Source: Christensenellales bacterium (GTDB taxonomy: Bacteria; Bacillota; Clostridia; Christensenellales; SZUA-584). From it: a stretch of DNA of 64,000 nt. Below are positions 31,309-51,449 of this stretch, piece by piece. Made by a program: the position numbers and the translations under genes. Under the pieces are notes generated by a model. That model made no database searches, was not told where the DNA came from, and saw nothing but the letters and a program-made list of their open reading frames with translations. Where the stretch lies: positions 723,806 to 787,805 of the forward strand of contig JAXGMA010000001.1 of NCBI GenBank assembly GCA_040768905.1, given 5' to 3'. How positions within the stretch are numbered: position 1 is the first letter of the stretch; each line of letters begins with the position of its first letter.

Positions 31309-31350
31309 TGTCCGAAGAACCATAAGGATATAAAAAACACATAAATAAAA

Positions 31351-31384
31351 AAAGCGGCTGCAGCATAGCAGCCGCTTTTTTTTT
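31351..31384 (+). terminator. Strong rho-independent terminator after clpX (left edge of the island)
   Basis: AGCGGCTGC-AGCATA-GCAGCCGCT followed by T9. Confidence 0.85.
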
Positions 31385-31474: not shown

Positions 31475-31503
31475 TTGACAGTGAAAAAAATAGTGGGTAT
31501 TAT
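31475..31503 (+). promoter_or_regulatory. SigA-type promoter of the left island operon
   Basis: TTGACA (31475-31480), 17-nt spacer, TATTAT (31498-31503), followed by a CAA-rich leader. Confidence 0.5.
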
Positions 31504-31577: not shown

Positions 31578-32363
31578 TTGAAAACGCAACAGCACACAAA
31601 TCATCAAAAAGAAGATTTTTCCCTCAATGGAAAAACGACACTGATCACCGGCGCTGCCGGCGGTATTGGGTACGCCATCGCAGAATTGTTTATAAGGAAA
31701 GGGAGTCAGCTTGTTCTTTTCGACATCTCTGACGACATAGCGGAAAAAGCAGAAAGCCTAAGGCGAAATGGATGCACGGTGTTATCCTATAAGGTGGATT
31801 TATGTGATCTGAATGCCATCAAGGATGCCTTTGATGATGCAACTGGGAAAATCGGCCATATCAATGTACTTGTCAATTGCGCAGGCATAGGGCCGCTTGC
31901 AAAGGCGCATGAGTTTCCTGTTGAGACATGGAAAAAAACCTTTGATATCAATCTGAATGCCCCGTTTTACTTATCGCAGCTCGTTGCAAAAAAGCTTATT
32001 GCGGACGGCAAACCCGGAAAAATCATCAATATAGCATCACAGGCGGGCATCGTGGCTATTGACGGGCATTTGGCGTATACATCAAGTAAAGCCGCCTTGC
32101 TCGGAATGACAAAATCTATGGCCTTTGAGTGGGGCAAATACGCGATCAATGTAAATGCGATTTCGCCGACTGTGATCATGACTGAGCTGGCTGCAGGATA
32201 TTGGAAGGATGATGTGGCGAAATCCGCGCTTCAAAAAATACCGCTCGGGCGGTTCGGACAGCCCAATGAAGTTGCCTCTGCGGCTTTGTATCTCGCGTCT
32301 GACGAAGCCGGTTTGATAACAGGATCCAATCTTGTCATTGACGGCGGGTATACAATCAACTAA
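31578..32363 (+). CDS. Short-chain dehydrogenase/reductase (SDR), polyol/sugar-acid dehydrogenase-like
   Basis: TGAAGGIGYA cofactor motif, catalytic YTSSKAA, C-terminal GSNLVIDGGYT; TTG start 8 nt after GGAG. Confidence 0.85.
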   Translation: MKTQQHTNHQKEDFSLNGKTTLITGAAGGIGYAIAELFIRKGSQLVLFDISDDIAEKAESLRRNGCTVLSYKVDLCDLNAIKDAFDDATGKIGHINVLVNCAGIGPLAKAHEFPVETWKKTFDINLNAPFYLSQLVAKKLIADGKPGKIINIASQAGIVAIDGHLAYTSSKAALLGMTKSMAFEWGKYAINVNAISPTVIMTELAAGYWKDDVAKSALQKIPLGRFGQPNEVASAALYLASDEAGLITGSNLVIDGGYTIN

Positions 32364-32408
32364 AGGCACACGTTTAATCAGTATCAACATATTTATCGAA
32401 AGGAGAGT

Positions 32409-33503
32409 ATGGTGGCCGAATCGGCATATGCCGCAAAGGCACCATGCGCATCGCAAATGGAAAAGAGAAAAGCTGCAGTTTTGTACGGCCCGAAAGACAT
32501 CAGGATAGAAATGATCGATATGCCCAAGATAGGCGAACATGATGTGCTTGTCAAGGTCAGAAGCGTGGGCATCTGCGGATCAGACCTGCACTATTATAAA
32601 GATTTCAAGATGGGCAAAGATGTCGTCACTGGCCCCCATATACTTGGGCATGAGTGTGCCGGAGATATTATGGAAGTCGGGAGTGCAGTAAAAAACAGAA
32701 AACCTGGCGACAGGGTCGCAGTTGAACCTGGCGTTCCGTGTTTTCATTGTGAGTATTGCCTGACCGGAAGATATAACCTGTGCGCAAATATGGTATTTCG
32801 TTCTCACCCTATGACTGAAGGCGCTTTGACTGAATATCTGGTGACTCCGGCAGCAATGACATTCCTGATGGATGATTCTATGAGCTATGACTGCGGAGCC
32901 ATGATAGAGCCTTTGTCGGTGGGGGTGCATGCCTTGCAGCGCGGCACTGTGAAGATGTGTGATAAAATAGCCATTTTCGGATGCGGCACGATTGGCCTTT
33001 GCACTTTGATGGCGGCAAAAGCCATGGGCGTATCCAAAGTGTATATGTGCGATATAAACAGTTTTCGTATCAATCTGGCCAAAGAATACGGTGCAGATAT
33101 CGTCATTGACTCCAGCCAGAGTGATTTTTATAAGACTGTCATGGATGCCACACAGGGCTTTGGCGTTGACGGGGTTTTTGATACTGTTGCCAACGATTTC
33201 ACACTTTCAAATTGCACAAGGATCTCAAAAAGAGGCGGCGTGGTGACGCATATCGCGATGTACAAGGATCCTATTGCACCGCTTAACATGTATGATCTGA
33301 TTGATAAGGAAATGGATTTCAGAGGAATATTCAGATATGCCAACACCTATAAGCTTGCGGTTGAGCTTGAGTCAAACGGCCAGACTGATCTTCAAAAGCT
33401 GATCACGCATACATTCCCTGTGGATGACATCAAAAACGCAATGGAAATGGCGCTTTGCAATCTCGGGACAAAAGATGTAATGAAAGTTGTTGTCAGATTT
33501 TAA
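32409..33503 (+). CDS. Zinc MDR dehydrogenase, sorbitol/xylitol (L-iditol 2-) dehydrogenase-like
   Basis: GICGSDLHYY, GHECAG, structural zinc CFHCEYCLTGRYNLC, EPLSVGVHA, GCGTIG. Confidence 0.85.
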   Translation: MVAESAYAAKAPCASQMEKRKAAVLYGPKDIRIEMIDMPKIGEHDVLVKVRSVGICGSDLHYYKDFKMGKDVVTGPHILGHECAGDIMEVGSAVKNRKPGDRVAVEPGVPCFHCEYCLTGRYNLCANMVFRSHPMTEGALTEYLVTPAAMTFLMDDSMSYDCGAMIEPLSVGVHALQRGTVKMCDKIAIFGCGTIGLCTLMAAKAMGVSKVYMCDINSFRINLAKEYGADIVIDSSQSDFYKTVMDATQGFGVDGVFDTVANDFTLSNCTRISKRGGVVTHIAMYKDPIAPLNMYDLIDKEMDFRGIFRYANTYKLAVELESNGQTDLQKLITHTFPVDDIKNAMEMALCNLGTKDVMKVVVRF

Positions 33504-33586
33504 ACGGCTCATGCTTTAAGTGCCATCATCAAAAAAACAAAGCAGTCAATGCTTTAATAAAATTTGAAAAGAGACGGTAGTACAGT

Positions 33587-34633
33587 ATGAAGGTAGCATA
33601 TTATTATGGAATCGGCGATATCAGGATGGAAGAGAAAAAAGTACCGGATATCAAGGAAAATGAGATTCTCATTAAGGTGAGGGCCTGCGCGGTATGCGGA
33701 ACTGATTTGAGGATCTTCAAATTCGGCCATTTCAAGATTCCGCAAGGCACAAAAAGAGTTCTCGGGCATGAGATAGCAGGTGAGATAGCTGCTGTCGGCA
33801 CAAATGTTAAAGGGTATAAAGTTGGAGAGAAGGTGGCCGTCCCGCCGAACATAGGGTGCGGCAAGTGCCGCGAATGCATGAAAGGCAAAAACCAACTATG
33901 CGCGCAATACGAAGCATTTGGCATCAGCCTGGACGGCGGTTTCCAGGAATATATGGTTGTTCCCGATTTTGCCGTCGCGTCAGGCGCAGTCTTCTCTGTG
34001 CCGGAAGGTTTATCATTTGAAGAGGCCGCGCTGGCCGAATCATTTTCATGTGTTTACAACGCCTTTGATTCGCTCAAGACTTCTCCGGGAGACACTGTAC
34101 TTGTCATCGGTGCCGGCCCGATCGGGAACATGCATGTCATTATCAACAAGCTGGCCGGAGCAACAAAAATCATGGTTGCCGATATCAATATGAAAAGGCT
34201 GGAGGAGTCAGAAAAATTCGGAGCAGACGTTATCATTGATACTTCAAAGCAAGATATTGTAGAGATGGTCAAACAAAATACAGACGGGCTTGGTGCGGAC
34301 GTTGTGATTACGGCCTGTTCAGTACCCGATTTGCAGGCAACTGCGCTTGAACTGGCAGCGACTTGCGGCAGGATCAATTTCTTTGGCGGGCTGCCCTTAG
34401 GGAAAGAATACGTGACATTGAATACAAATCTTATCCACTATAAGGAGCTGAGCGTACTTGCAACAACAGGGTCAAGCAAAGATGACTTTTATAAGACGCT
34501 GCACATACTTGCATCTGGCAGAATCAGCTTAAAGCCTTTGATCAGCCATAGATACAAAATAGAAAATATCAATGAAGCCTTTAAAATGGCTGCGTCGGGA
34601 GACGCGATGAAAGTATTTGTGGTCAATGAATAA
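33587..34633 (+). CDS. Zinc MDR dehydrogenase (paralogue 2)
   Basis: CAVCGTDL, GHEIAGE, CGKCRECMKGKNQLC, GAGPIG. Confidence 0.8.
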   Translation: MKVAYYYGIGDIRMEEKKVPDIKENEILIKVRACAVCGTDLRIFKFGHFKIPQGTKRVLGHEIAGEIAAVGTNVKGYKVGEKVAVPPNIGCGKCRECMKGKNQLCAQYEAFGISLDGGFQEYMVVPDFAVASGAVFSVPEGLSFEEAALAESFSCVYNAFDSLKTSPGDTVLVIGAGPIGNMHVIINKLAGATKIMVADINMKRLEESEKFGADVIIDTSKQDIVEMVKQNTDGLGADVVITACSVPDLQATALELAATCGRINFFGGLPLGKEYVTLNTNLIHYKELSVLATTGSSKDDFYKTLHILASGRISLKPLISHRYKIENINEAFKMAASGDAMKVFVVNE

Positions 34634-34659
34634 AAAACAAGAGAGGAACAGCCAAATAT

Positions 34660-35721
34660 ATGGGTTCATCTATGGAAGCTGCTGTGCTTTATGCACCGGG
34701 CGATCTAAGGGTAGAAAAAGTTCAATTCAATAAAGAGCCAGACAGTAACGAAGTTTTGGTTGAAGTCAAGGCTGCCGGTATATGCGGTTCAGATACCGAC
34801 AGGATAATGAAAACAGGGACTTACAGCTTTCCGACCATACCCGGCCATGAGTTTTGCGGTGTGATAAGCAAAGCAGGTGACAGCGTCGAGGGGTTTAAAC
34901 AAGGGGACAGGGTTGTCGTGATCCCTATTTTGCCGTGTTTTGCGTGTGATTCGTGCCAAAAAGGCAACTACGGGCAGTGCATTACCTATGATTACATGGG
35001 CTCGAGATCGGACGGCGGCTTTGCGCAGCACATCAAAGTCAAGCCGAAAAATCTCATTCATTTACCTGATAATGTCTCCTTCATTGAGGGCGCAATGATA
35101 GAGCCCGCGGCTGTGACGCTTCACGGTATTCGTAAAATTCCCATCAAGGCGGGTGACACCACAGCCGTTTTGGGATGCGGTACTTTAGGGCTGCTCGCTA
35201 TTCAGTTTATAAAAATCCTCGGCGCCACTAAAGTGATCGCAGCTGATATCGATAAAGACAAATTAAAGCTCGCCAAAGAACTGGGCGCAGATACTATCAT
35301 TGATGCATCCAAAGTGGACTCAGCAGAAGAAATCATGCGGATCACAGGCGGAAAAGGCGTAGAAGCAGTGGTCGAGACAGCAGGATTGTCACTGACTCAG
35401 GAACAGTGCATAAGGGCTGCAGCCAAGCAAGGCAGGATACTGTATCTTGGCTCATCGCATAAGGATGTTGTCATACCGCCAAAGACATTTGAGCTAATTA
35501 TCAGGAACGAGCTTAAGATCGCAGGCTCATGGAACTCATATTCTGCACCATTCCCGGGTGTTGATTGGCTGGCGACTCTTGGCTATGTAAAAGACGGCAG
35601 GTTAAAGCTCGAACCTCTGATGTCCCATCAGTGCAGTTTGAAGCAGCTGCCGGAAATGATAAAGAAAATGTATGAAAGGAAGATAAATTTCAACAAGATA
35701 TTGGTTATAATGAGTAAATAA
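34660..35721 (+). CDS. Zinc MDR dehydrogenase, galactitol-1-phosphate 5-dehydrogenase (GatD)-like
   Basis: GICGSDTDR, GHEFCGV, CFACDSCQKGNYGQC, and YMGSRSDGGFAQ, which resembles the GatD segment FIGSRRDGGFAE. Confidence 0.78.
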   Translation: MGSSMEAAVLYAPGDLRVEKVQFNKEPDSNEVLVEVKAAGICGSDTDRIMKTGTYSFPTIPGHEFCGVISKAGDSVEGFKQGDRVVVIPILPCFACDSCQKGNYGQCITYDYMGSRSDGGFAQHIKVKPKNLIHLPDNVSFIEGAMIEPAAVTLHGIRKIPIKAGDTTAVLGCGTLGLLAIQFIKILGATKVIAADIDKDKLKLAKELGADTIIDASKVDSAEEIMRITGGKGVEAVVETAGLSLTQEQCIRAAAKQGRILYLGSSHKDVVIPPKTFELIIRNELKIAGSWNSYSAPFPGVDWLATLGYVKDGRLKLEPLMSHQCSLKQLPEMIKKMYERKINFNKILVIMSK

Positions 35722-35885
35722 TCTATAATAAAAGCATCGGGTGTATTTCTGTTTTTTGAAACATAGCTGAGTGCCTCGTATCTTGTTCGAGGATAATGCA
35801 GACGGCAAAGCCATCAGCTATGGCGAGAAGAAGGAGATTTGCCCCAAAATGTCTTTTGACAAATAAAAAATATAAGGAGTCATTT

Positions 35886-37406
35886 ATGCAGACAAAGCTT
35901 ATGATGGCCGTAGATCTTGGGACCAGCTTTATTAAGGTGGGTGTATACGACACACAAGGCAACTGTCTGGTGATTACTTCGGAGCCCGTAAAAGAACATT
36001 GCCCCAAACCCGGTATCTATATTCAGTATGGCGATGAAATATTTACTTCTGTACTGGCAAGCATAAACAGCGCGGCAGCAGAGCTTGGTGAAAGATCCGG
36101 CAATGTTGAAGCGATTTCGTTTACAGGTCAGATGGCAGGCTTCATGGGTGTCGACAAAGACTGGAACGACATCACAACATGGTCTTGCTCTCTGGATGGC
36201 AGATATTTGCCTTTCATTGACAGAATGATGCAAGAACATGCCGACCTTTTTTTAGAAGAGGCGGGCACAAACTCGCCGGTCATGGCCCCGAAGATCAAAT
36301 GGTTCGAGCATGACTTTCCCGAAGAATCAAAGAAAATCGCAAAATACTGCATGATCAGCAGCTATGTCCTTGGAAGATTGGGCGCTGTGCCTATTGAAGA
36401 GGCTTCCATCAACAGGTCATATCTTGAATGGACGGGACTCTCAGACATAAGGAATGATAAGTGGTCCGAAAAAGTGTGCAGTGCTTTGTCGATCGATAAA
36501 AATACGCTTCCCAAAATTGTTCAATCGTATGATATTTGCGGGCACTTATCCGCTGAAATGGCGGGCAAGATAGGTTTGAAAAGCGGCATTCCGCTTATCT
36601 CAGGCTGTGGAGACAAGCCCGCGGGATGCCTCGGGGCGGCTGTCGTTGAACCCGGGGAGGTCATACTTGAAGCGGCTTCCTATGCCGGGATGAGCTGCTG
36701 TGTGGAAAGCTATAAACCCGATTATGACAGCCGGCGCGTCGATCTGATCCCTTCTGCCATACCCGGAGAATTCTATATGCACAATTTTCTTGCAGGGTCA
36801 GGCATCACTTTAAAGTGGTTTATTGATAATTTTGCTGCAGATACCGGCCAGCCGTCCGAAGCTTTTCGTATCATTGAAAACAACATTGCAGGTATTGAAC
36901 CGGGCTCAGACGGGTTGCTTGCTATCGGCATGCTTGGCGGTAGGGCCATGCCTTTTGACGGAAACATCAGAGGCATGTGGATGAATTTCAACTGGACGCA
37001 TAAAAAAGAGCATTTCTACAGGGCATTGCTGGAATCATACTCGTATGAATTTGCTCTGACGCTCGATACATTAGACAAGCTATACACAGAATATGCCTTT
37101 AACAATGTGAAAATCATCGGCGGAGGTGCAAAATCTGTGATTTGGAACCAAATGAATGCTGATGTATGCAGGAGAACCTTCTCGACGCTGAACAGAAGCG
37201 ATGTTGCGCTTTGGGGCGCTTCGATCATTGCAGGAAAAGCGGTCGGCATTTTCGATGATATGAAAAAGACGGCAAGAGAACATGTGAAGGTGCTTAAAGA
37301 TTATAAACCCGACCCTGATATGTATACTAAATATGAAAAATTTATGAAGACATATGCGCAATATATCGTTTCGTTGAGCGGTCATTTTAAAAACCTTAAC
37401 AAATAA
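35886..37406 (+). CDS. FGGY-family carbohydrate kinase (xylulokinase-like)
   Basis: MAVDLGTSFIKVGVYD N-terminus, IIGGGAKSVIWNQMNADV C-terminal motif. ATG 35886 is preceded by AAGGAG; the track ORF starts at 35796. Confidence 0.85.
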   Translation: MQTKLMMAVDLGTSFIKVGVYDTQGNCLVITSEPVKEHCPKPGIYIQYGDEIFTSVLASINSAAAELGERSGNVEAISFTGQMAGFMGVDKDWNDITTWSCSLDGRYLPFIDRMMQEHADLFLEEAGTNSPVMAPKIKWFEHDFPEESKKIAKYCMISSYVLGRLGAVPIEEASINRSYLEWTGLSDIRNDKWSEKVCSALSIDKNTLPKIVQSYDICGHLSAEMAGKIGLKSGIPLISGCGDKPAGCLGAAVVEPGEVILEAASYAGMSCCVESYKPDYDSRRVDLIPSAIPGEFYMHNFLAGSGITLKWFIDNFAADTGQPSEAFRIIENNIAGIEPGSDGLLAIGMLGGRAMPFDGNIRGMWMNFNWTHKKEHFYRALLESYSYEFALTLDTLDKLYTEYAFNNVKIIGGGAKSVIWNQMNADVCRRTFSTLNRSDVALWGASIIAGKAVGIFDDMKKTAREHVKVLKDYKPDPDMYTKYEKFMKTYAQYIVSLSGHFKNLNK

Positions 37407-37469
37407 GTAAGTGTAATAAACAATCATGGCTACGCCAAATTTAATTTATTTTAAGCGGAGGGAAGAGTG

Positions 37470-38492
37470 ATGAAACAGGCAGTAATGATAGAACCGGGGA
37501 AAATAGAATTTCGAGATGTCGATATTCCGAAAATCAATCCGGATGAAGTATTGATCAAGACACATCGCATCGGCATATGCGGTTCGGATATCCATGTTTA
37601 TCACGGCAAGCATCCGTACACCTCTTATCCGATCGTTCAGGGCCACGAGATCTCGGGCGAAATCGCCAAAGTCGGTGAAAATGTGCAAGGCCTTAAAGAA
37701 GGAGACCTAGTGACGGTCATGCCTCAGGTTGTGTGCGGAGAATGTTACCCTTGTCTTCACGATCAGTATCATATTTGCGATAATTTAAAAGTACTGGGGT
37801 TTCAAACGACGGGCACGGCTTCAGAGTATTTCAAGATCAATGCAGCCAGCGTGCTGAAGACTGACAGTATCACAGACTTAAATGATATCGCCTTTATCGA
37901 ACCCGTCGCTGTGGCCGTCCACGCGCTTGGTAGGCTGGGCGATATAAGCGGTAAAAAAATACTGGTTCTCGGCGCGGGACCGATCGGCAATCTGATCGGG
38001 CAGGCAGCAAAAGCATTGGGTGCACAGCAGGTAATGATCACTGATGTAAGCGATTTTCGTCTGGAGCTGGCAGCAAAATGCAATATAGACCATTGCATCA
38101 ACACACAAAAGGTTGATTTGGGCTCCGCGCTGGTTGAAAAATTCGGCCATGACAAAGCAGACTGCATTTTAGACTGCGCCGGTGTCAGCGCATCCATTGA
38201 TGCAGCCATCAGCAACGCAAGAAAAGGCTCCGATATTGTTGTTGTCGCGGTGTTTTCAAAAAAGGAAAGCGTCGATCTTGGGCTTATACAAGACAGGGAG
38301 CTTCGGCTGATCGGTACGCTGATGTACAAAAAAGAGGATTTTTTGAAAGCCATCGATATCATTGCAAAAAAACAAATCAACATCGGGATCCTCGTGACCA
38401 ATACATTTGGCTTTGATGAGTTTTCTGATGCTTATGAATTTATTGAAAAACAAAAAGATCAGGCGATGAAAATCATAGTTCAATTAGATTAA
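37470..38492 (+). CDS. Zinc MDR dehydrogenase (paralogue 4, YdjJ/threonine-DH-like)
   Basis: GICGSDIHVY, GHEISGE, CGECYPCLHDQYHIC, GAGPIG; RBS GGAGGG. Confidence 0.8.
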   Translation: MKQAVMIEPGKIEFRDVDIPKINPDEVLIKTHRIGICGSDIHVYHGKHPYTSYPIVQGHEISGEIAKVGENVQGLKEGDLVTVMPQVVCGECYPCLHDQYHICDNLKVLGFQTTGTASEYFKINAASVLKTDSITDLNDIAFIEPVAVAVHALGRLGDISGKKILVLGAGPIGNLIGQAAKALGAQQVMITDVSDFRLELAAKCNIDHCINTQKVDLGSALVEKFGHDKADCILDCAGVSASIDAAISNARKGSDIVVVAVFSKKESVDLGLIQDRELRLIGTLMYKKEDFLKAIDIIAKKQINIGILVTNTFGFDEFSDAYEFIEKQKDQAMKIIVQLD

Positions 38493-38510
38493 TACATAGG
38501 GGGGGATATA

Positions 38511-39935
38511 ATGAGGAATGTCAAAGTCGGGTTGGTCGGTTTGTTTCACAGGAACGCCCGGGGTGACGACGAGGCTTTCGACCGCATTGTTCTTGAGCTC
38601 GAAGCCTTGTCAAAACAAAAGGGATTCGATTTTTTCCCTGTGAGAGAAAAGGTTTACAGCTACGACGACGGTATTAAGGCAGTCAACACGCTGAATGATG
38701 CGGGAGTGGATTTCACACTGATGCTCTCTGCAAGCGTCACGATCGGAAATGCTGTGATTCCGTTCGGGAATTTGAACAGTTATATCGGGATCTGGTCGAT
38801 CCCTGAGGGCACACAGGAAGGCTTTTTGCCGTTGAATTCTTTTTGCGGTTCCATGATATTTGCAGGGGTGCTTGGCACTTACCTCAAAGACAAAAATATT
38901 CAATTCAAGTGGTTCTATGGGTATACGGACAATCCGCTTTTTATAGAAAGGTTCGAGATCACGCTGAAAGCCATCAAAGCGATTCTGCTGCTTAAACACA
39001 GCAGAGTCGGCTGTGTTGGCCCTTTGGTGGAAGGCTTTGATTATTTAGCTGTCAATGAAGCACAGATCTACAAGCTGTACGGGACATACACAGGCAGGCT
39101 GCACTCAGTCGAAGAGATCATCAAGAGGGCAAAGGCTTACGCACACAGCAATGTGAAAAGCGAATTAGACCTGATACATGAGGAAGGCGCATCAACAAAA
39201 AGCGTCAGCGATGAATCGATGGACAAAATGGCGCGTTTATCTCTGGCGCTCAAAGACTTTGCCAACGAAAACAGTTACAATGCACTGGCGATCAGCTGCT
39301 GGACGAGACTGCGTGAAGAATACGGCATGGTGCCATGTGCTGTTATCAGCAGATTAAACAATCAGGGGCTTATCGCTGCCTGCGAAGCCGATTTTGACGG
39401 TGCAATCGGTATGCTGATAGAATCTTCTTTTGGCGGCCAGCCGTCATCGCTCGTTGACCTCGTGAGCCTTGATGAACAGGACATGTCGATGAATATTTGG
39501 CATTGCGGGCCGGCGCCCAAATGTATGGCCGATGAAAAGGGCATCAAATGGGATGAGCATTTTAATATGGGTTGTTACGATAAGAACGGCGCATGGTGCG
39601 GATGCGGCGCGGTCGCCGACCTGCAGTTCAAAATGGGAAAGGTGACTGTCAGCCGTCTGTCAAGCAAAGCGGAGGAAGCTGTGGTCTTTACAGCAGACAT
39701 GATCGACAAAATTGCGTATCAGGGTTCTTCCGGCTGGATCAAAAACTTCAAGATGCAGGGCAAGAAGCTCGATCTTAAAGAATTGCTTTCAGTGATATAC
39801 AATTACAGAGTTGACCATCATATGACTTTCGGCTACGGCGACAATGAGGACGCATACCTGGAGTTTGCCAACTGGAAGAAGCTGAAGATAGCAGCAGCAA
39901 GCCAGTATGCGCCGTATTTACAAAGCCGCGGGTAA
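38511..39935 (+). CDS. Sugar isomerase of the L-fucose/L-arabinose isomerase superfamily (specificity unknown)
   Basis: 474 aa. The overall pattern (CWTRLREEYGMVPCAVISRLNNQGLIAACEADFDGAI ... WHCGPAP) recalls FucI/AraA-like (COG2407-type) proteins. The assignment is from memory of the family, not a search. Confidence 0.55.
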   Translation: MRNVKVGLVGLFHRNARGDDEAFDRIVLELEALSKQKGFDFFPVREKVYSYDDGIKAVNTLNDAGVDFTLMLSASVTIGNAVIPFGNLNSYIGIWSIPEGTQEGFLPLNSFCGSMIFAGVLGTYLKDKNIQFKWFYGYTDNPLFIERFEITLKAIKAILLLKHSRVGCVGPLVEGFDYLAVNEAQIYKLYGTYTGRLHSVEEIIKRAKAYAHSNVKSELDLIHEEGASTKSVSDESMDKMARLSLALKDFANENSYNALAISCWTRLREEYGMVPCAVISRLNNQGLIAACEADFDGAIGMLIESSFGGQPSSLVDLVSLDEQDMSMNIWHCGPAPKCMADEKGIKWDEHFNMGCYDKNGAWCGCGAVADLQFKMGKVTVSRLSSKAEEAVVFTADMIDKIAYQGSSGWIKNFKMQGKKLDLKELLSVIYNYRVDHHMTFGYGDNEDAYLEFANWKKLKIAAASQYAPYLQSRG

Positions 39936-40014
39936 AAAAGCAGCATAGAAAATACAACATAAACTAAAAAACAAAAATAAAAAACAAAAAACAAAAAACA
40001 AGAGGGAGATGTTC

Positions 40015-40884
40015 ATGAATAAAGTAGGGATATATTTTGCATTCTGGACCCATGATTGGACTGCGGATTATATGTTATATCTGGATAAGGTTTCAAGGCT
40101 CGGCTTTGATATCTTAGAGGTCGGCTCGGGTGCCGTATTGGAGATGCCAAAACATAAACAGAGGGATCTTAAAAAGGCAGCGCAGGATAAAGGCGTTGAG
40201 CTGACATACTGTATTGGTTTTACGGCAGACAAGGACATGGCTTCTGAGGATGAGACAGTGCGGCGAAATGGCATCGAATACGCAAAAAAGACGATCGAAA
40301 TGATCGGTTTTATGGAAGGTAAAGTATTCGGCGGCATCAATTATTCTTCATGGCCCGGCGTCCTCAATGAAGGCATTCGGGATAAAAGGCCATATCTTGA
40401 CCGCAGTATCGCCGGCATAAAAGAAGTCATCAAAACGGCTGAAGACTGCGGCGTACTGTATTGCCTTGAAGTCGTGAACCGCTTTGAACAGTATTTGATA
40501 AATACTGCGGCCGAGGGCGTCGCCTATATAGATGAAGTCGGAAGTCCTAATTTAAAACTGCTGCTTGATGTTTTTCATATGAATATTGAGGAAGATGATA
40601 TGACGCAGGCCATCATCACTGCCGGAGACAAACTTGGGCATTTTCATATTGGCGAAACAAACAGAAGGCCTCCCGGACAGGGCAGGATGCCATGGAAAGA
40701 GATTTTCGGAGCATTGAAATCCATTGGATACAGCGGCAGGATTGTCATGGAGCCGTTTGTCATGATGGGCGGCGAAGTGGGAAGAGATATCAAAGTATGG
40801 AGAGAGCTTAATCCGGAAAAGAGTGAAGAACTGCTTGACGCACAAGCAAAAGAAGCGCTGTCGTTTGTTAGAAGCATGATATAA
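40015..40884 (+). CDS. Ketose 3-epimerase (D-psicose/D-tagatose 3-epimerase family)
   Basis: Collinear resemblance to Clostridium cellulolyticum D-psicose 3-epimerase. All four metal/catalytic motifs are conserved: CLEVVNRFE, LDVFHMNIEE, HFHIGETNR, IVMEPF. ATG 40015 is better spaced to GGGAG than ATG 40009. Confidence 0.85.
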   Translation: MNKVGIYFAFWTHDWTADYMLYLDKVSRLGFDILEVGSGAVLEMPKHKQRDLKKAAQDKGVELTYCIGFTADKDMASEDETVRRNGIEYAKKTIEMIGFMEGKVFGGINYSSWPGVLNEGIRDKRPYLDRSIAGIKEVIKTAEDCGVLYCLEVVNRFEQYLINTAAEGVAYIDEVGSPNLKLLLDVFHMNIEEDDMTQAIITAGDKLGHFHIGETNRRPPGQGRMPWKEIFGALKSIGYSGRIVMEPFVMMGGEVGRDIKVWRELNPEKSEELLDAQAKEALSFVRSMI

Positions 40885-40909: not shown

Positions 40910-40936
40910 AGCCGGAGAAGCAGTGCTTCTCCGGCT
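40910..40936. terminator. Bidirectional hairpin between the convergent epimerase and DeoR genes
   Basis: AGCCGGAGAAGC / GCTTCTCCGGCT near-perfect 12-bp stem with A/T-rich flanks on both sides. Confidence 0.6.
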
Positions 40937-40971: not shown

Positions 40972-41772
40972 CTATTTCTGGGTATTTTTTGCGATCACGA
41001 CGTTGATATCAATATTTTCAAGTTCTTCAAGCATATCTTTTTGGATCTTTGAATCAGTGATCATCACATCGATGGCACTTAATTCTGAAAAACGTACGAA
41101 TGAAGTTTTTCCGAATTTACTGCTGTCTGTCAGTAAAAAGATTTCATTGGCCATAGACAGATAAAACTCTTTCACCTTAGCCAGATCTATATTGGGCGTT
41201 GTGAGGCCTTGTGAGACGGTAATCCCATTTGCGGCTATGAAGGCTTTATCAACATGCAATCCCTCTAAAGAAGCCAAGGTTCTTGCGCCTACAGTACAAT
41301 GAAACCCTTTTCTTAATATACCCCCAGCCAAAATGATGCTGACAGAAGGCTCTCTTTCCAGATAAAAAGCGGTTTGAAGATCGTTAGTAACGACAGTCAA
41401 GTTGTTTCTTTGCTTTAATAATTTTGAAAACTCGAAGATGGTGGTTCCCGTGTCAAGTATGATGGTATCGCCGTTTCTGACATAATCAAGGGCACACGCG
41501 GCGATCTCTTTTTTTTCATTGACATGCGAAATTTCCTTCTCAAAGGAATTTGGTTCAAAGTTGGCCTGCTCTTTATTTTGTATCGCACCGCCGTGTGTGC
41601 GTTTGATAAGACCCATGGATTCTAAGTCACGAAGATCATTCCGGATGGTGGCGGGAGAAACATTAAACAAATCACATAATTGCGGCACAGTGACTTTGCT
41701 GTTTTTATTGATTGTGCTGACGATCAAATTCTTTCTTTCTTCAGCGAATATCCCGATTGGCTGTTCTTCCAT
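40972..41772 (-). CDS. DeoR/GlpR family transcriptional regulator
   Basis: N-terminal HTH (VTVPQLCDLFNVSPATIRNDLRDLESMGLIKRTHGG) and a C-terminal DeoR sugar-phosphate sensor domain. Confidence 0.88.
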   Translation of the reverse strand: MEEQPIGIFAEERKNLIVSTINKNSKVTVPQLCDLFNVSPATIRNDLRDLESMGLIKRTHGGAIQNKEQANFEPNSFEKEISHVNEKKEIAACALDYVRNGDTIILDTGTTIFEFSKLLKQRNNLTVVTNDLQTAFYLEREPSVSIILAGGILRKGFHCTVGARTLASLEGLHVDKAFIAANGITVSQGLTTPNIDLAKVKEFYLSMANEIFLLTDSSKFGKTSFVRFSELSAIDVMITDSKIQKDMLEELENIDINVVIAKNTQK

Positions 41773-45077: not shown

Positions 45078-46607
45078 ATGGTTAAAGAAAATGATACCGC
45101 ACAAGAATCAAACACCATCAGGGTCGATATGACGGATATCAGCAAACACTTCGGCGGTGTTAAAGCGCTTGAGGATGTCTCATTGAAAGTGAAGCAAGGT
45201 GAAATTCACGCTCTGATGGGGGAGAATGGTGCCGGAAAATCCACTTTGATGAAGATTCTTTCCGGAGCTTATACCAAAGATAAAGGGACTATCATCATCG
45301 AAGGAAAAGAGGCGAACATTACCAGCCCGAAGAGCGGCAGGGAGCACGGCATATCCATCATCTATCAGGAATTTGCCTTGGCTCCTGATCTGACAGTGGC
45401 TGAAAACATTTTTATCGATAACCTTGGGTCTGGAAAGTCGGTCATCGACTGGAAACAACTTAGAAAAAATGCACAGGAGCTGCTTAATGAGCTTGGGTTT
45501 GGCAATATTAACGTGAGAGCCAAAGTGCGTGATATATCTGTGGCCTATCAGCAGGTCGTCGAGATATGCAAAGCGATTTCAAGGAAGTGTTCCGTATTGG
45601 TTTTGGATGAACCTACGGCGGTGCTTGCCTCCAATGAAGTCAAGCAATTATTCAAACTCTTAAGGCAATTAAAACAGCAAGGGGTCAGTATCATCTATGT
45701 TTCACATCGCTTGAATGAGATCTTTGAAATGTGCGACAGGATCACAGTGCTCAAGGACGGCAAGAACGTTGATACGGTCAATGTGACAGATATTGATGAA
45801 CACAGATTGGCGACCATGATGGTTGGCCGCGAACTTAAAGACTTGTTTCCGCCTCGGCATGCAAAGATCGGTGATGTTGTCCTCAAGGTTGAAGATATTA
45901 CAAACGGAAGACGCGCCAGAAATATTTCGCTTGAAGTCAGATCTGGGGAAGTTCTCGGAATCAGCGGGTTGATAGGTTCCGGTCGTACAGAAACAATGCG
46001 GGCGGTTTTCGGCGCGGACAGAAAAGATTCAGGCGTTGTCTATTTATTTGATAAGAAAGTGCATATCAAAAAGCCGCGCCATGCAGTCAAGCTCGGGATG
46101 GGCATGCTGCCTGAAGACAGAAAAGCACAAGGCGTTTTGCTTAACATGTCTGTGAAGGTCAATTCAACATTAAGTTCCATCAATAAGTTCAGCGGGCTGT
46201 TCGGCTGGATCAACAAAAAACAGGAAACGTCGACGGTCAGAGATCTTGTCAAAAAAATGACTGTCAAAACAACATCTATTGATTCGTTGGTGAACAGCTT
46301 GTCAGGCGGCAACCAGCAAAAAGTATCGCTCATCAAATGGCTGGCTTCCGGCTGTAAGGTCATCATACTTGATGAACCGACACGGGGTGTCGATATCGGC
46401 GCAAAAGTTGAGATCTACAAGGTCATTAACCAGCTTGCTGAAGAAGGTGTCGCATTGATCATGATCTCGTCCGAAATGCAGGAAGTGGTCGGCATGAGTG
46501 ACAGAATAATCGTCATGCGGGAAGGAAAGCTCATGGGAGAGCTCAACGGCAATGAAGCCAGTGAACAAAGCTTAATCAATTTATGTATGGGGGTAGCCTG
46601 TCAATGA
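45078..46607 (+). CDS. Sugar ABC transporter ATP-binding protein (CUT2 family, duplicated NBD)
   Basis: Two ABC cassettes: GENGAGKST with VLVLDEPT, and LSGGNQQK with IILDEPTRGVD. RbsA/MglA-like length (509 aa). Confidence 0.92.
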   Translation: MVKENDTAQESNTIRVDMTDISKHFGGVKALEDVSLKVKQGEIHALMGENGAGKSTLMKILSGAYTKDKGTIIIEGKEANITSPKSGREHGISIIYQEFALAPDLTVAENIFIDNLGSGKSVIDWKQLRKNAQELLNELGFGNINVRAKVRDISVAYQQVVEICKAISRKCSVLVLDEPTAVLASNEVKQLFKLLRQLKQQGVSIIYVSHRLNEIFEMCDRITVLKDGKNVDTVNVTDIDEHRLATMMVGRELKDLFPPRHAKIGDVVLKVEDITNGRRARNISLEVRSGEVLGISGLIGSGRTETMRAVFGADRKDSGVVYLFDKKVHIKKPRHAVKLGMGMLPEDRKAQGVLLNMSVKVNSTLSSINKFSGLFGWINKKQETSTVRDLVKKMTVKTTSIDSLVNSLSGGNQQKVSLIKWLASGCKVIILDEPTRGVDIGAKVEIYKVINQLAEEGVALIMISSEMQEVVGMSDRIIVMREGKLMGELNGNEASEQSLINLCMGVACQ

Positions 46608-47614
46608 AGAATGATCAAATAAATCAAAACGGCAAAGCTTTTTCGGTTAAAGAATTCGTGCTCAGGTACAATGCTGTCATTATGCTTATCGCTTTAATCA
46701 TCGTATCAAGCTTGCTTTCCAATGTGTTTTTCACCACGATAAACATTTTTAATCTTCTGCGGCAAAATACACCCTTGCTTATGGTCAGCTTAGGGATGCT
46801 CATGGTCATCTTAACAGGCGGGATCGATCTTTCTGTGGGCTCTATTGCCGGTGTCAGCGCGATGGTATTATCAGTAGCCATAGAATCGTGGAAATGGAGC
46901 AGTGCAGTCGGATTGATCATGGGGATACTCTTTGCCTTGATCATTGGGTTTGCCATCGGCAGTTTCAGCGGCTTGCTTGTATCCATACTCCGCATGGCGC
47001 CTTTTGTCGCCACGCTCGCAGTCATGACGATGGGACGCGGGCTTGCGTTCCTGATCACAAACGGCCAGCCGGTCAGGCTGTCTACAGATATGACGGCGAC
47101 AAAGATCTTAAACGAAATCGGCAGCGGCAATGTGCCTTTGCTGGGTTTTCCCTGGCCGATTTTGATCGGCATCATCGTTGTTGTCTTGTTCATTCTCGTG
47201 ACACGGTATACGACATTTGGTAGACTTGTCATTGCAACAGGCAGCAATGAAACTGCGGTTCGTCTTGCGGGTATCACCGTTGAAAAATATAAATTTTTCG
47301 CATATGCACTCAGCGGTGTCTTGAGCGCTTTGGCTGGAATCATATCAACATCAAGAGCAACGATAGGCGTACCGATAGCGGGACAGGGTTATGAACTAGA
47401 TGCAATCGCTGCATGTGTGATCGGCGGCGCCAGCCTCGCAGGCGGGAAAGGCACAGTGTTCAACACTTTGATCGGCGTTATAGTATTAGGCTTGATCACA
47501 AACATTATGAACCTTTTAAGTGTTGCGGCTTATCCGCAGCAAATAATAAAAGGCGCTATAATTATACTCGCTGTGTTGCTTCAGGGTATCACCAGCAAGA
47601 AGGACAGTGTGTAG
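46604..47614 (+). CDS. Sugar ABC transporter permease (RbsC-like)
   Basis: Multi-TM protein with the GGIDLSVGS motif; ATGA overlap with the ATPase stop. The track ORF starts at 46583. Confidence 0.9.
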   Translation: MKNDQINQNGKAFSVKEFVLRYNAVIMLIALIIVSSLLSNVFFTTINIFNLLRQNTPLLMVSLGMLMVILTGGIDLSVGSIAGVSAMVLSVAIESWKWSSAVGLIMGILFALIIGFAIGSFSGLLVSILRMAPFVATLAVMTMGRGLAFLITNGQPVRLSTDMTATKILNEIGSGNVPLLGFPWPILIGIIVVVLFILVTRYTTFGRLVIATGSNETAVRLAGITVEKYKFFAYALSGVLSALAGIISTSRATIGVPIAGQGYELDAIAACVIGGASLAGGKGTVFNTLIGVIVLGLITNIMNLLSVAAYPQQIIKGAIIILAVLLQGITSKKDSV

Positions 47615-48920: not shown

Positions 48921-50279
48921 ATGAACAGAGCAAAAAAGAGTTTTGTATTGTTGCTGGCTTTATGTATGGTCTTTGCCATCGTGATGGCAGGATGTACAGA
49001 AGCGCCCCCGGCACAGCCGGCAGACCCCGCGAAACCGGCAGACCCCGCGAAACCGGCAGACCCCGCGAAACCGGCAGAACCAGCGGCCAATACGGACGGC
49101 GAGCTGCATGAACTTTACACATTGTTGCCGCAAACCTCGCTGACGGGTGTTGTCAGCCCGGAGCTAAAGGACAGAGCGAACATCGACAAGGCATGGCCTA
49201 AGACTCCGAAAGACCCCAATAAAATAGTGATCGGCTGGACGGAGATCACGCTTGGCAACCCATGGTTCATCGGAGTTCAGAAGGCTGCCGAAGAGGCAGC
49301 AGCCAAATACGGCTTCCAGCTCGATATGCTTGTGGCCGATGGCAGCGTTGAAAGACAGAGCGAGCACATCGATTCATTCATCACCAGGGGCGTTGACATT
49401 ATCGTCGTTGACCCATGTGACGTTTTGGGTCCTGTGAATGACATCAAGAGAGCTGTCGAAGCCGGTATCCCGGTCGTCGGCATGGGCACGGTTATGGACG
49501 ATTCAGCCCCGATCTTAACGACAGTTATTCTTAATCCGTTTGAAGTCGGATATTCCTGCGGTGAGTATATTTCCACAAAATACGAACCGGACCAGAACGT
49601 AAACCTTGCCATCGTGCTTGGCGTAATGGGCAACTCGACATCTGAAAGCCGTATCTGCGGCGGCATCAGCGGCATGATCGCTGAACGCCAGAGACAAAAC
49701 GGCACATTCACATCAAAAGAAGATGCCATCCTTGCAGGCTACAACTTGTTTGACCAGGTGAAGAGAACAGGCAAAGGAGAAGACCCTGTCAATAAATTTA
49801 CGGTACTGGCATATGGCGACGGAAATTGGACAGAAGAAGACGGCCTGGCTGTGACGGAAGATATCCTGACAGCTGTCGGCGACCAGCTTGACCTGATCAT
49901 TGCATGTAATGACTTCGAAGCACTTGGCGCTCTAAAAGCAGTTAAGGCTCGTGGCCTTCAGGACAAAATCAAGATCGCTGCATTTGCTGACGGCGCAAAG
50001 ACAGGCCTTGACGCAGTCAAAGCTGGCGACCTTATCTGCACCGGCACATTCGGCGGCCCTGGATTTGGCGCACATACCATCGAGTTCATCAAAGCGATCT
50101 TCATAGACGGAAAAGATCCGAGCAATCTGCCCATGGGAACATTCGGCCCCGTGTCTGTCATCAACCGCGAGAACATGGATCAGTACTATGATGATGACCC
50201 GAACAACGAGTTTTACAAGATACCTGGCTTTGAATTCCCCAAATCAATACCTGAAATAAAAGCATCATTTGGGAACTAA
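48921..50279 (+). CDS. Sugar ABC transporter substrate-binding lipoprotein with repetitive PADPAK linker
   Basis: Lipobox VMAGC, (PADPAK)x3 linker, then a periplasmic-binding-protein type-I fold (IVIGWTEITLGNPWF). Confidence 0.85.
   Translation: MNRAKKSFVLLLALCMVFAIVMAGCTEAPPAQPADPAKPADPAKPADPAKPAEPAANTDGELHELYTLLPQTSLTGVVSPELKDRANIDKAWPKTPKDPNKIVIGWTEITLGNPWFIGVQKAAEEAAAKYGFQLDMLVADGSVERQSEHIDSFITRGVDIIVVDPCDVLGPVNDIKRAVEAGIPVVGMGTVMDDSAPILTTVILNPFEVGYSCGEYISTKYEPDQNVNLAIVLGVMGNSTSESRICGGISGMIAERQRQNGTFTSKEDAILAGYNLFDQVKRTGKGEDPVNKFTVLAYGDGNWTEEDGLAVTEDILTAVGDQLDLIIACNDFEALGALKAVKARGLQDKIKIAAFADGAKTGLDAVKAGDLICTGTFGGPGFGAHTIEFIKAIFIDGKDPSNLPMGTFGPVSVINRENMDQYYDDDPNNEFYKIPGFEFPKSIPEIKASFGN
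49017..49079 (+). repeat. Perfect 18-bp tandem repeat (3.5 copies) inside the SBP gene
   Basis: CCGGCAGACCCCGCGAAA at 49017, 49035 and 49053, plus a partial copy to 49079. In frame, it encodes PADPAK. Confidence 0.95.
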
Positions 50280-50417: not shown

Positions 50418-51449
50418 ATGAAAGCTGCTGTTGTAAATAGTATTGGAAAAGTATGCCTGGAGGAAAGAATCATACCGCAGGCAGGAAAAAATGAAGCCCT
50501 TGTTAAGGTCATATATGGTGGCATATGCGGAACGGATGTCCACGTTATGATGGGCAAACACAAAACAGCTAAATACCCTGTTGTTTTGGGGCATGAGTTT
50601 ATTGGCAAGCTTGTTGAACTCAACACGGCAGATGACATCGATGCAAAACCGGGAGACCTCGTTTTTGTACAGCCGTTTGAGTCCTGTGGAATCTGTGAGG
50701 CCTGCATTGAGGGCAGAGAGAATGTCTGCAGCAAACTTGCGATTCTCGGTGTGCATCGCGATGGCTGTTTTGCTGAGTATGTCTCGGTTCCTGCCAGTAA
50801 AGTCTTTAAAATGCCGGATAACCTTGATATGAAGCTGGCTACACTTGTCGAACCGTTGGCGGTCGCGGTCCATGATGTGAAACAAAGCGGTTTAAAGCTT
50901 GGCCAAACAGCTTTGATAATTGGCGGAGGGCCCATCGGTTTACTGATCGCTATAGTAGCAAGATTGGCGGGCGCAACAAAAATCGTTGTCAGCGAAGTGA
51001 ATGACTATAGGCTGCGTTTTGCTGAAAAACTTGGTTTCAAAATCATAGATGCAAAAAAATCAGATTTGAGAAGCATGGCCAAAGACTTCACCGGGTCGAA
51101 AGGTTTTGATGTGGTGTTCGAAGTTTCGGGCACAAAAATAGCGACTGAGCAAATGACGGAGTGCGTGAAGACTGGTGGAAGGATCGTGATCGTCGGCGTA
51201 CCGGGAGATAAATATGTTGTTGATACAGGATTGATGCTTGCCAAGGAGATCGAAATGGTGGGTGTCAGGATACACGCCACTAAAAATTATGTGGCCGCCA
51301 TTGAAATTCTTAAATCTAATATCATTAACGATCAGTTAATAGACTTTATTGACAGTGAATTTTCGTTGGATAAAATAGAAGAAGCGATGAAATATTCGAT
51401 CGAAGATCAGAAGCATTTTAAAACGCTAATAAAAATTGGGGAGATTTAA
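50418..51449 (+). CDS. Zinc MDR dehydrogenase (paralogue 5)
   Basis: GICGTDVHV, GHEFIGK, CGICEACIEGRENVC, GGGPIG. Confidence 0.82.
   Translation: MKAAVVNSIGKVCLEERIIPQAGKNEALVKVIYGGICGTDVHVMMGKHKTAKYPVVLGHEFIGKLVELNTADDIDAKPGDLVFVQPFESCGICEACIEGRENVCSKLAILGVHRDGCFAEYVSVPASKVFKMPDNLDMKLATLVEPLAVAVHDVKQSGLKLGQTALIIGGGPIGLLIAIVARLAGATKIVVSEVNDYRLRFAEKLGFKIIDAKKSDLRSMAKDFTGSKGFDVVFEVSGTKIATEQMTECVKTGGRIVIVGVPGDKYVVDTGLMLAKEIEMVGVRIHATKNYVAAIEILKSNIINDQLIDFIDSEFSLDKIEEAMKYSIEDQKHFKTLIKIGEI

Follow-up and report, generated by a model that had tools for sequence, protein, structure and literature searches.

Why would a bacterium stack several zinc-dependent dehydrogenases in one operon around a single sugar kinase? 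The question arose in a 64,000-nt stretch (the window) of the genome of a Christensenellales bacterium (GenBank assembly GCA_040768905.1, contig JAXGMA010000001.1, positions 723,806 to 787,805), where four medium-chain dehydrogenases/reductases (MDRs) and a short-chain dehydrogenase/reductase (SDR) share a gene cluster with one kinase of the FGGY family. The original prediction proposed that several polyols are funnelled here to a common ketose that is then phosphorylated, or that the dehydrogenases act in series as a redox relay. Judging from the analysis below, the most likely role of the unit is to channel a number of rare sugars and sugar alcohols toward central metabolism. We lean, at slightly better than even confidence, toward a DeoR-associated catabolic unit for such substrates that was built by joining modules found separately in other genomes.

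The SDR gene, the four MDR genes and the one FGGY gene are all present and co-directional on the plus strand at 31578-38492, and the FGGY gene is the only kinase gene in the surrounding island at 31.5-54.4 kb, as predicted. We number the MDRs in gene order; MDR5 is a fifth one in the transporter locus downstream. The predicted genes exist, but the end at 38492 was wrong. The unit reaches 40884, because MDR4 is followed by genes for a 474-aa putative isomerase and a 291-aa ketose 3-epimerase, and then by a hairpin (Table 1). Intergenic gaps in the unit are 18-83 nt, with 164 nt ahead of the kinase when its start is corrected. After the terminator hairpin at 31347-31382, the next strong hairpin is the one at 40910-40936, and we found no strong terminator between them. 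The eight genes at 31578-40884 are thus predicted to be co-transcribed as one unit. It is possible that an internal start in the 164-nt gap separates a four-dehydrogenase half from a half with the kinase, MDR4, the isomerase and the epimerase. Rfam at the gathering threshold found no riboswitch and no other RNA in the whole window.

All five MDRs have exactly one GHE motif and one CxxCxxCx7C structural-zinc motif (at residues 80 and 111 in MDR1), in agreement with the original prediction. In each of them PF08240 and PF00107 score above cut-off, and a CG[ST]D motif further upstream keeps its Cys, the catalytic-zinc ligand at about residue 40. Each also has GxGxxG and an Asp or Glu ending Rossmann strand beta-2, where the SDR has an Asp too. 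An acidic residue at the end of beta-2 in Rossmann folds means that NAD is preferred over NADP. This suggests that all six dehydrogenases are NAD-type enzymes, which would fit catabolic oxidation.

The paralogues had been described as clearly diverged, and they are: pairwise identity among the five is 27.4-33.7%, and at 27-34% none of them is a recent near-identical duplicate of another. The phylogeny that had been proposed as a check was run on 72 sequences with IQ-TREE (support is given as ultrafast bootstrap/SH-like approximate likelihood ratio test), including E. coli K-12 GatD, YdjJ, YdjL, Tdh, IdnD, RspB and Ahr, the genome's ten other MDRs and syntenic homologues. Each MDR of the unit fell in a separate supported clade. 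Forcing the five into a single clade was 752 log-likelihood units worse, and since the approximately unbiased test gave p 3.5e-5 against the single clade, we rejected duplication in place. The five MDRs are old paralogues, and those of the unit each come from a different clade.

The family labels given to the MDRs held up as likenesses. MDR1 was labelled sorbitol dehydrogenase-like, and its best PDB match is human sorbitol dehydrogenase (247 bits), followed by 5vm2 (244), ketose reductase (232), L-arabinitol 4-dehydrogenase (207), xylitol dehydrogenase (192) and IdnD (156 bits). In the tree it clusters with E. coli YdjJ (99/86), in a wider group that includes IdnD. The Tdh-like label suits MDR2, MDR4 and MDR5, which score best on Tdh models at 212-240 bits, far under the cut-offs for membership (458 for TIGR00692 and 380 for NF003808); MDR2 has the 240 bits, against the cut-off of 458. 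The best PDB matches of MDR2 and MDR4 are archaeal Tdh-like proteins (182-192 bits). E. coli Tdh itself groups with YdjL and with no paralogue from the window, and no gene like kbl, the partner of tdh, was found in the island. MDR2 is in a clade of its own (100/99) without a characterised member among the rows of the tree, and MDR4 is in a clade of 12-13 rows (99/90) drawn mainly from loci that carry the isomerase. MDR5 pairs with a 50% identical paralogue at 1.329 Mb, in a quick tree only. The SDR passes the GolD/DthD subfamily model NF005309 (309.6 bits, cut-off 286). We also considered an inositol pathway of the IolM/IolO type and dropped it: IolM has a cut-off of 450 bits, against which the MDRs score 187-211, and neither an inositol dehydrogenase nor an inositol hydrolase is encoded.

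MDR3 deserves separate treatment. The label GatD-like is borne out by a 7-row clade that it shares with E. coli GatD (100/99) and by its best PDB match, 4a2c, with 247 bits (the next has 175). It misses the NCBIfam GatD equivalog NF007642 (290.1 bits, cut-off 550), and the search for a galactitol phosphotransferase system (PTS) or a tagatose-bisphosphate aldolase found no PTS or aldolase gene at 31.5-54.4 kb. R48, R116 and R282 of MDR3 align with R44, R112 and R278 of GatD, and in an alignment of 19 sequences these three arginines are invariant in the five from the GatD clade and absent from the other 14. By alignment, R48 is six residues past the catalytic Cys and R116 is just past the structural-zinc lobe, in regions that we take to line the substrate pocket in sorbitol dehydrogenase. 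In other genomes, MDR2 and a GatD-clade gene are adjacent in five loci (L013, L094, L096, L097 and L107), from four same-genus genomes and a Defluviitaleaceae metagenome-assembled genome (MAG), and in the two that are annotated, L013 and L096, the pair follows an RpiR/SIS regulator. RpiR/SIS regulators usually sense sugar phosphates, and DeoR-family regulators usually do likewise. In the arabitol operon (atl) of B. methanolicus, AtlD is co-transcribed with a second dehydrogenase gene annotated as galactitol-1-phosphate 5-dehydrogenase (PMC6685057), as MDR2 and MDR3 may be. Because of the GatD clade, the three clade-specific arginines, the RpiR/SIS and DeoR context and the B. methanolicus precedent, we believe that MDR3 probably binds and acts on a phosphorylated polyol as the most likely substrate class. 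The island lacks a PTS, which would leave the neighbouring FGGY kinase as the sole candidate for making this substrate.

The kinase most likely starts at 35886 and not at 35796, because an AAGGAG is found 6 nt upstream of 35886 (the DxGTS motif then opens at residue 10) and because the sequence just upstream diverges in strain X6. This strain, which is about 5% diverged, has 8 differences in the 25 nt at 35817-35841, as expected of non-coding DNA. The best NCBIfam match of the kinase is XylB (TIGR01312) with 197.3 bits against a cut-off of 380, and GntK has 188 against 649, so neither cut-off is reached. The genome's own XylB at 1.314 Mb does pass (391.8 bits against 380) and is only 24% identical to the kinase of the unit. 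The best match in a plasmid search was 30% identical, and none of the matches was characterised. Orthologues with 55-58% identity occur in relatives, always among TIM-barrel, SDR, MDR and ABC genes. By these comparisons, the kinase belongs to an FGGY lineage distinct from the XylB type.

The two genes that close the unit change how it can work. For the 474-aa protein, neither Pfam nor a sequence search of the PDB gave a match, and it scores 135 bits on the profile of the sulfoquinovose isomerase SftI against a cut-off of 700. Its AlphaFold2 model is confident (predicted local distance difference test 93, predicted template modelling score 0.92), and Foldseek aligned it over the full length with L-arabinose isomerases (TM 0.79-0.80) and D-arabinose/L-fucose isomerases (TM 0.72-0.77), although it is only 11-14% identical to these AraA/FucI structures. 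The likeness to AraA, FucI and SftI thus lies in the fold over the full length, in a length close to that of AraA and in the weak match to the SftI profile. We presume from the model that it is an aldose-ketose isomerase of the AraA/FucI fold. Its closest homologues are 59-67% identical (P0001-P0004). The 291-aa protein passes the NCBIfam PsicseEpim equivalog (403.7 bits, cut-off 300) and matches the D-tagatose 3-epimerase (DTE) of P. cichorii at 1e-89, with all four metal/catalytic positions (Glu, Asp, His, Glu) aligned to the residues that we take to have this role in DTE. By family and catalytic residues it is a free ketose 3-epimerase. The genome holds one ketose 3-epimerase and one isomerase of the 474-aa family.

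To see how far the arrangement is kept elsewhere, we compared 80 genome loci and 80 metagenome loci anchored on the isomerase, plus 40 relatives including 22 same-genus species. (The metagenome loci come from a profile scan, as a single-protein scan gave no matches.) Neither the 9.3-kb arrangement nor a comparable stack of four MDRs occurs among the 160 isomerase-anchored loci or the 40 relatives, and the arrangement is as unusual as had been claimed. What we found instead were parts of it. The isomerase adjoins an orthologue of MDR4 (45-57%) in 11 loci from genomes and 9 from metagenomes, among them Spirochaetota, Myxococcota, Halanaerobiales and unclassified MAGs. Genes for an ABC (ATP-binding cassette) importer, an SDR, an FGGY kinase and another MDR are usually part of these loci. 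Two Lachnospiraceae genomes, one of them Blautia, have an ABC importer directly followed by the isomerase and the epimerase with only a two-component regulator nearby, and there is no dehydrogenase or kinase. Together with the MDR2-GatD pairs and the separate settings of the kinase lineage, this points to a stack that is a mosaic of separately conserved modules and not one co-evolved pathway.

The kinases of these loci differ from ours. One of them, the neighbour of the isomerase in a Treponemataceae locus, scores 409 bits on the XylB equivalog, above the cut-off of 380. Its orthologues (49-81%) are found with the isomerase in about 20 loci, a number that includes some metagenome copies of the same MAGs. 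The genome's own XylB, which adjoins an MDR, is 52% identical to the Treponemataceae kinase, to which the kinase of the unit is only 24% identical. Because XylB-type kinases accompany the isomerase/MDR4 module elsewhere, it appears that the module ends there at D-xylulose and is coupled here to a different kinase. The XylB-MDR pair is at G000:C1:1314381-1316994 (L113), and in a genome of the same genus (L089) the closest relative of that MDR adjoins the orthologue of MDR4. This looks like the break-up of an ancestral ABC-MDR-MDR4-SDR-XylB cluster in which MDR4 moved into the unit.

The operon DNA is found with identical sequence in anaerobic-digester metagenomes of two studies, one of which may be the source sample. 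In groundwater strain X6 (about 95% identity), 28 of 30 bins are covered, and contigs bridge the FGGY-MDR4 and isomerase-epimerase junctions. Since the operon recurs in metagenomes and two of its junctions are bridged in X6, it is not an assembly artefact. Two joints in X6, 32591/33759 and 33570/39146, have 21 letters on the shorter side and were treated as unreliable.

Downstream of the unit, and convergent with it, is the gene for a DeoR-family regulator (best NCBIfam match AgaR, 207 bits against 260), which we presume to be the repressor of the operon. We compared the operon promoter with the regions upstream of the DeoR, LacI, ABC, GldA and MDR5 genes for a shared operator, which we rejected: only A-rich 9-11-mers were common and no site could be aligned. 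The 31-nt core of the promoter is unique in the window. The CUT2 transporter at 45-50 kb is the best match, genome-wide and among about 14 such systems, for all three parts of the Blautia importer (63/59/46%), and it is the probable uptake system for the isomerase-epimerase module. It has a paralogue at 162137-166058 of its own genome (solute-binding protein 42%, ATPase 57% and permease 54% identical). The transporter locus is closed by a second xylose-isomerase-like TIM-barrel gene (53530-54363), with weak matches to QuiC (52 bits) and IolO (48 bits).

Table 1. Features of the dehydrogenase unit and of the transporter locus downstream, in window coordinates.
Feature	Position	Strand	Remarks
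Bidirectional terminator hairpin after clpX	31347-31382		Upstream boundary of the unit; 15-bp stem between A and T runs
Sigma-70-type promoter, TTGACA-17-TATTAT	31475-31503	+	Predicted from an 11/12 consensus match only; about 75 nt 5' of the SDR start
SDR	31578-32363	+	Pfam adh_short_C2
MDR1	32409-33503	+	Pfam ADH_N and ADH_zinc_N
MDR2	33587-34633	+	Pfam ADH_N and ADH_zinc_N
MDR3	34660-35721	+	Pfam ADH_N and ADH_zinc_N
Gap of 164 nt	35722-35885	+	Weak promoter-like site at 35756-35784 and a short hairpin; no terminator found
FGGY kinase	35886-37406	+	Reading frame open from 35796; Pfam FGGY_N and FGGY_C
MDR4	37467-38492	+	Pfam ADH_N and ADH_zinc_N; start GTG 37467 or ATG 37470
Putative isomerase, 474 aa	38511-39935	+	AraA/FucI fold (model); 18-nt gap after MDR4
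Ketose 3-epimerase, 291 aa	40009-40884	+	D-psicose/D-tagatose 3-epimerase family
Bidirectional terminator, flanked by the stop codons of the epimerase and DeoR genes	40910-40936		12-bp stem with 8 GC pairs
DeoR-family regulator	40972-41772	-	Pfam HTH_DeoR and DeoRC; convergent with the operon
CUT2 ABC ATPase and permease	45078-47614	+	63% and 59% matches to the Blautia importer
Solute-binding protein of the CUT2 transporter	48921-50279	+	Pfam Peripla_BP_4; 46% to the Blautia protein; nearest structure 4ry9, 92 bits
MDR5, fifth zinc dehydrogenase, in the transporter locus	50418-51449	+	ADH_N and ADH_zinc_N; GHE and Cys motifs

How would such a unit work? In the scheme that we favour, substrates would enter through the CUT2 importer 5 kb downstream. 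The SDR, MDR1 and MDR4 would oxidise different free polyols to ketoses with NAD, the AraA-like isomerase would turn an aldose into a ketose, and the ketose 3-epimerase would invert C3; in this way the various inputs would all arrive at whatever ketose the FGGY kinase accepts. MDR3, perhaps with MDR2, would act on the phosphorylated polyol or ketose that the kinase releases. Because the unit has no aldolase, the product of MDR3 would go straight to central metabolism. The DeoR protein would sense a phosphorylated intermediate. We infer the order of the steps, the substrates and the DeoR effector from sequence. Parts of the funnel as first proposed survive in this scheme: the MDRs come from different clades and look NAD-type, there is one kinase, and the layout is unusual. 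Other parts do not, as an isomerase and an epimerase share the unit and MDR3 probably works after phosphorylation; for the latter reason, the idea of many polyols leading to one ketose needs adjusting. As to the sugars themselves, the association of the isomerase/MDR4 family with XylB favours pentoses and pentitols ending at D-xylulose, while the epimerase family and the kinship with GatD are equally compatible with hexoses.

Several observations weigh against this scheme. No MDR reaches any NCBIfam equivalog cut-off and neither does the kinase, and only one species shows the full arrangement. As a match for the Blautia importer, the CUT2 transporter is modestly ahead of the paralogue at 0.16 Mb (63/59/46% against 60/51/38%), and the comparison of upstream regions within the window gave no DeoR operator. 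In MDR3, the ligand of the three arginines could be a carboxylate and not a phosphate. There may be two transcripts, divided at the 164-nt gap with its promoter-like site, and modules that are conserved apart fit several independent pathways with a common promoter equally well.

This last point leads to the rival that the operon is one of convenience, which we judge unlikely. It would hold two to four independent pathways (SDR-MDR1; MDR2-MDR3; kinase-MDR4-isomerase-epimerase) that share a promoter and a regulator and have no ketose in common, with products going to different enzymes including the XylB at 1.314 Mb. Every module does occur alone elsewhere, the gap and its promoter-like site fall just where the dehydrogenase half meets the kinase half, and the genome has other possible takers for the products (XylB, a GlpK, two further FGGY kinases and at least 5 other polyol or sugar islands). 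Against this we set the tight spacing, the one strong promoter and one strong terminator, and the junctions kept in the strain that is about 5% diverged. MDR3 is also hard to place, because it likely acts at the phosphate level and has no PTS or kinase nearby except the adjacent FGGY kinase. The second idea in the original prediction, a linear relay in which dehydrogenases in series oxidise and reduce one substrate, invert its stereocentres and hand it to one final phosphorylation, seems to us doubtful. It would resemble the fungal route from L-arabinose through L-arabitol, L-xylulose and xylitol to D-xylulose, whose enzymes are an MDR (L-arabitol 4-dehydrogenase), an SDR (L-xylulose reductase), an MDR (xylitol dehydrogenase) and an FGGY xylulokinase. 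These types match the families of the unit, MDR1 matches the structures of L-arabinitol 4-dehydrogenase and xylitol dehydrogenase, and six NAD-type dehydrogenases would make a relay redox-neutral. The spirochaete and same-genus clusters also have MDR4, an SDR, a second MDR and an XylB-type kinase (in some cases with the isomerase) and no epimerase, and there a redox route to D-xylulose would replace the epimerisation at C3. In our unit, however, the free ketose 3-epimerase makes such a relay largely unnecessary, because stereochemical conversions are possible without it when an isomerase and a free 3-epimerase are encoded. The modules are also conserved apart and not together, the kinship of MDR3 with GatD points to a phosphorylated substrate, and the kinase is not of the XylB type.

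A route for sugar acids is the least probable of the explanations that we considered, and we would be surprised to see it confirmed. Here SDR-MDR1 would correspond to IdnO-IdnD of E. coli, which take L-idonate by way of 5-ketogluconate to gluconate, the kinase would be a gluconokinase-type FGGY enzyme, and the arginines of MDR3 would hold a carboxylate. On NCBIfam models the SDR matches gluconate 5-dehydrogenase (200 bits) and MDR1 matches IdnD (205 bits), idnD adjoins idnO in E. coli, and the kinase scores nearly the same on GntK (188 bits) and XylB (197 bits); the wider group of MDR1 includes IdnD, and YdjJ comes from a sugar-acid cluster. The scores on IdnD, gluconate 5-dehydrogenase and GntK are all far under their cut-offs, however, while the SDR passes a polyol-dehydrogenase model (GolD/DthD) and MDR1 has 192-247 bits on sorbitol, L-arabinitol and xylitol dehydrogenases against 156 on IdnD. 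The island has no dehydratase, 2-keto-3-deoxygluconate kinase or 2-keto-3-deoxy-6-phosphogluconate (KDPG) aldolase, and the epimerase and isomerase belong to families that act on neutral free sugars. A different variant is a tentative possibility. In it, the unit would be a natural network of free-sugar interconversions of the 'Izumoring' kind, with a PTS-independent polyol-phosphate branch; an isomerase-epimerase salvage of a rare aldose would have recruited the dehydrogenases and the kinase. The GatD-type enzyme would then be downstream of a kinase and not of a PTS, and the specificity of the kinase would be new.

The likenesses to known systems are all partial. The Izumoring triad of rare-sugar biotechnology consists of a polyol dehydrogenase, a ketose 3-epimerase (such as P. 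cichorii DTE or the D-psicose 3-epimerases of clostridia) and an aldose isomerase, and the unit encodes all three classes. To our knowledge, Izumoring is a man-made scheme that has not been described as a natural pathway, and we found no description of a natural operon of this composition in the literature searched. One difference is the isomerase, whose sequence family has no characterised member. The E. coli ydjEFGHIJKL cluster, which had been given as the precedent, is similar in that it has several zinc MDRs and a DeoR-family regulator in one sugar cluster, and the precedent stands for the kinship of MDR1 with YdjJ and for the regulator. It fails for the rest: ydj has two MDRs, the non-FGGY kinase YdjH (which we take to be of the PfkB type), the aldolase YdjI, an aldo-keto reductase and major facilitator transporters, and the kinase family, aldolase, transporter and aldo-keto reductase are absent from the unit. 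In turn ydj lacks an isomerase, a 3-epimerase and an SDR, all of which the unit has, and no paralogue in the window groups with YdjL. The unit resembles the gat operon (GatABC PTS, GatD, GatYZ) and PTS-linked polyol-phosphate dehydrogenase operons such as atl of B. methanolicus in the clade of MDR3 and in its DeoR-type regulator (GatR in gat), but the island has no PTS or tagatose-bisphosphate aldolase, and the only possible phosphorylation step is the FGGY kinase. With the fungal oxidoreductive L-arabinose/D-xylose route and the bacterial pentitol routes the unit shares the logic of MDR, SDR, MDR and FGGY kinase; compared with the pentitol pathways, the kinase is not of the XylB type and the genome's XylB is 590 kb away.

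The unit is part of a wider island of 23 kb (31383-54400) with nine NAD(P) dehydrogenases, two TIM-barrel enzymes, the isomerase, a MIF-like tautomerase and a ferredoxin-nitroreductase fusion. The island has a GC content of 44.6%, compared with 48.8% in the whole genome, and ranks at the 9th percentile among 23-kb windows, which is mildly atypical and too weak for us to call horizontal transfer. The genome is 2.47 Mb in one contig and has 15 MDR genes, five of them here within 19 kb. We also counted 12 SDRs related to the one in the window, about 14 ATPases of CUT2 ABC systems, five kinases of the FGGY family and at least 5 other sugar/polyol islands; the kinases elsewhere in the genome include the true XylB and a GlpK, with two more from the FGGY family.

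Some of the related loci have features of their own. One genome of the same family (G024) has five clusters (L090, L099, L100, L101, L102), each with a kinase orthologue of 55-58% identity, along with TIM barrels like D-psicose 3-epimerase, SDR/MDR genes and an ABC importer, in a large lineage-specific expansion of one cluster type. In a same-genus genome (G014), a URO-D-family (PF01208) gene at L096:15366-16493 is an odd companion for sugar genes: it is found in a sugar cluster between two FGGY kinases, beside the module with RpiR, MDR2 and the MDR3-like gene. Cupin-type glucose-6-phosphate isomerase and KDPG/2-keto-4-hydroxyglutarate aldolases are encoded at L013:1244-2569 and L012:1219-1863. 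The first region adjoins the closest MDR2-MDR3 pair and the second is part of the Halanaerobiales isomerase-epimerase-MDR4 locus; these genes hint at a 2-keto-3-deoxy acid branch in those organisms. In Blautia (L001:3551-5113), a 520-aa double ABC_tran ATPase is encoded on the opposite strand, beside the genes for a histidine kinase and an AraC-type response regulator upstream of the importer, isomerase and epimerase, and it may belong to a sensor system.

All of the enzyme families here are known, and nothing overturns current understanding. In the literature that we searched, we found no description of the combination, of the isomerase family, of the FGGY lineage or of a GatD-type step fed by a kinase. 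Ketose 3-epimerases are the workhorses of commercial allulose and rare-sugar production, and in the same literature we found no paper on one in a natural pathway; use of allulose by bacteria is described there only via the phosphorylated AlsE route (PMC12216980). If the free-sugar network were true, it would be the first physiological context for the industrial D-psicose/D-tagatose 3-epimerases and would add two new enzyme specificities. The locus also points to an isomerase family in hundreds of uncultured genomes, a distinct FGGY lineage and a possible kinase-fed polyol-phosphate dehydrogenase. The stack appears to be an operon that grew by accretion of modules and not by duplication, and together with the importer-isomerase-epimerase locus of the Lachnospiraceae it may offer a testable physiological setting for ketose 3-epimerases.

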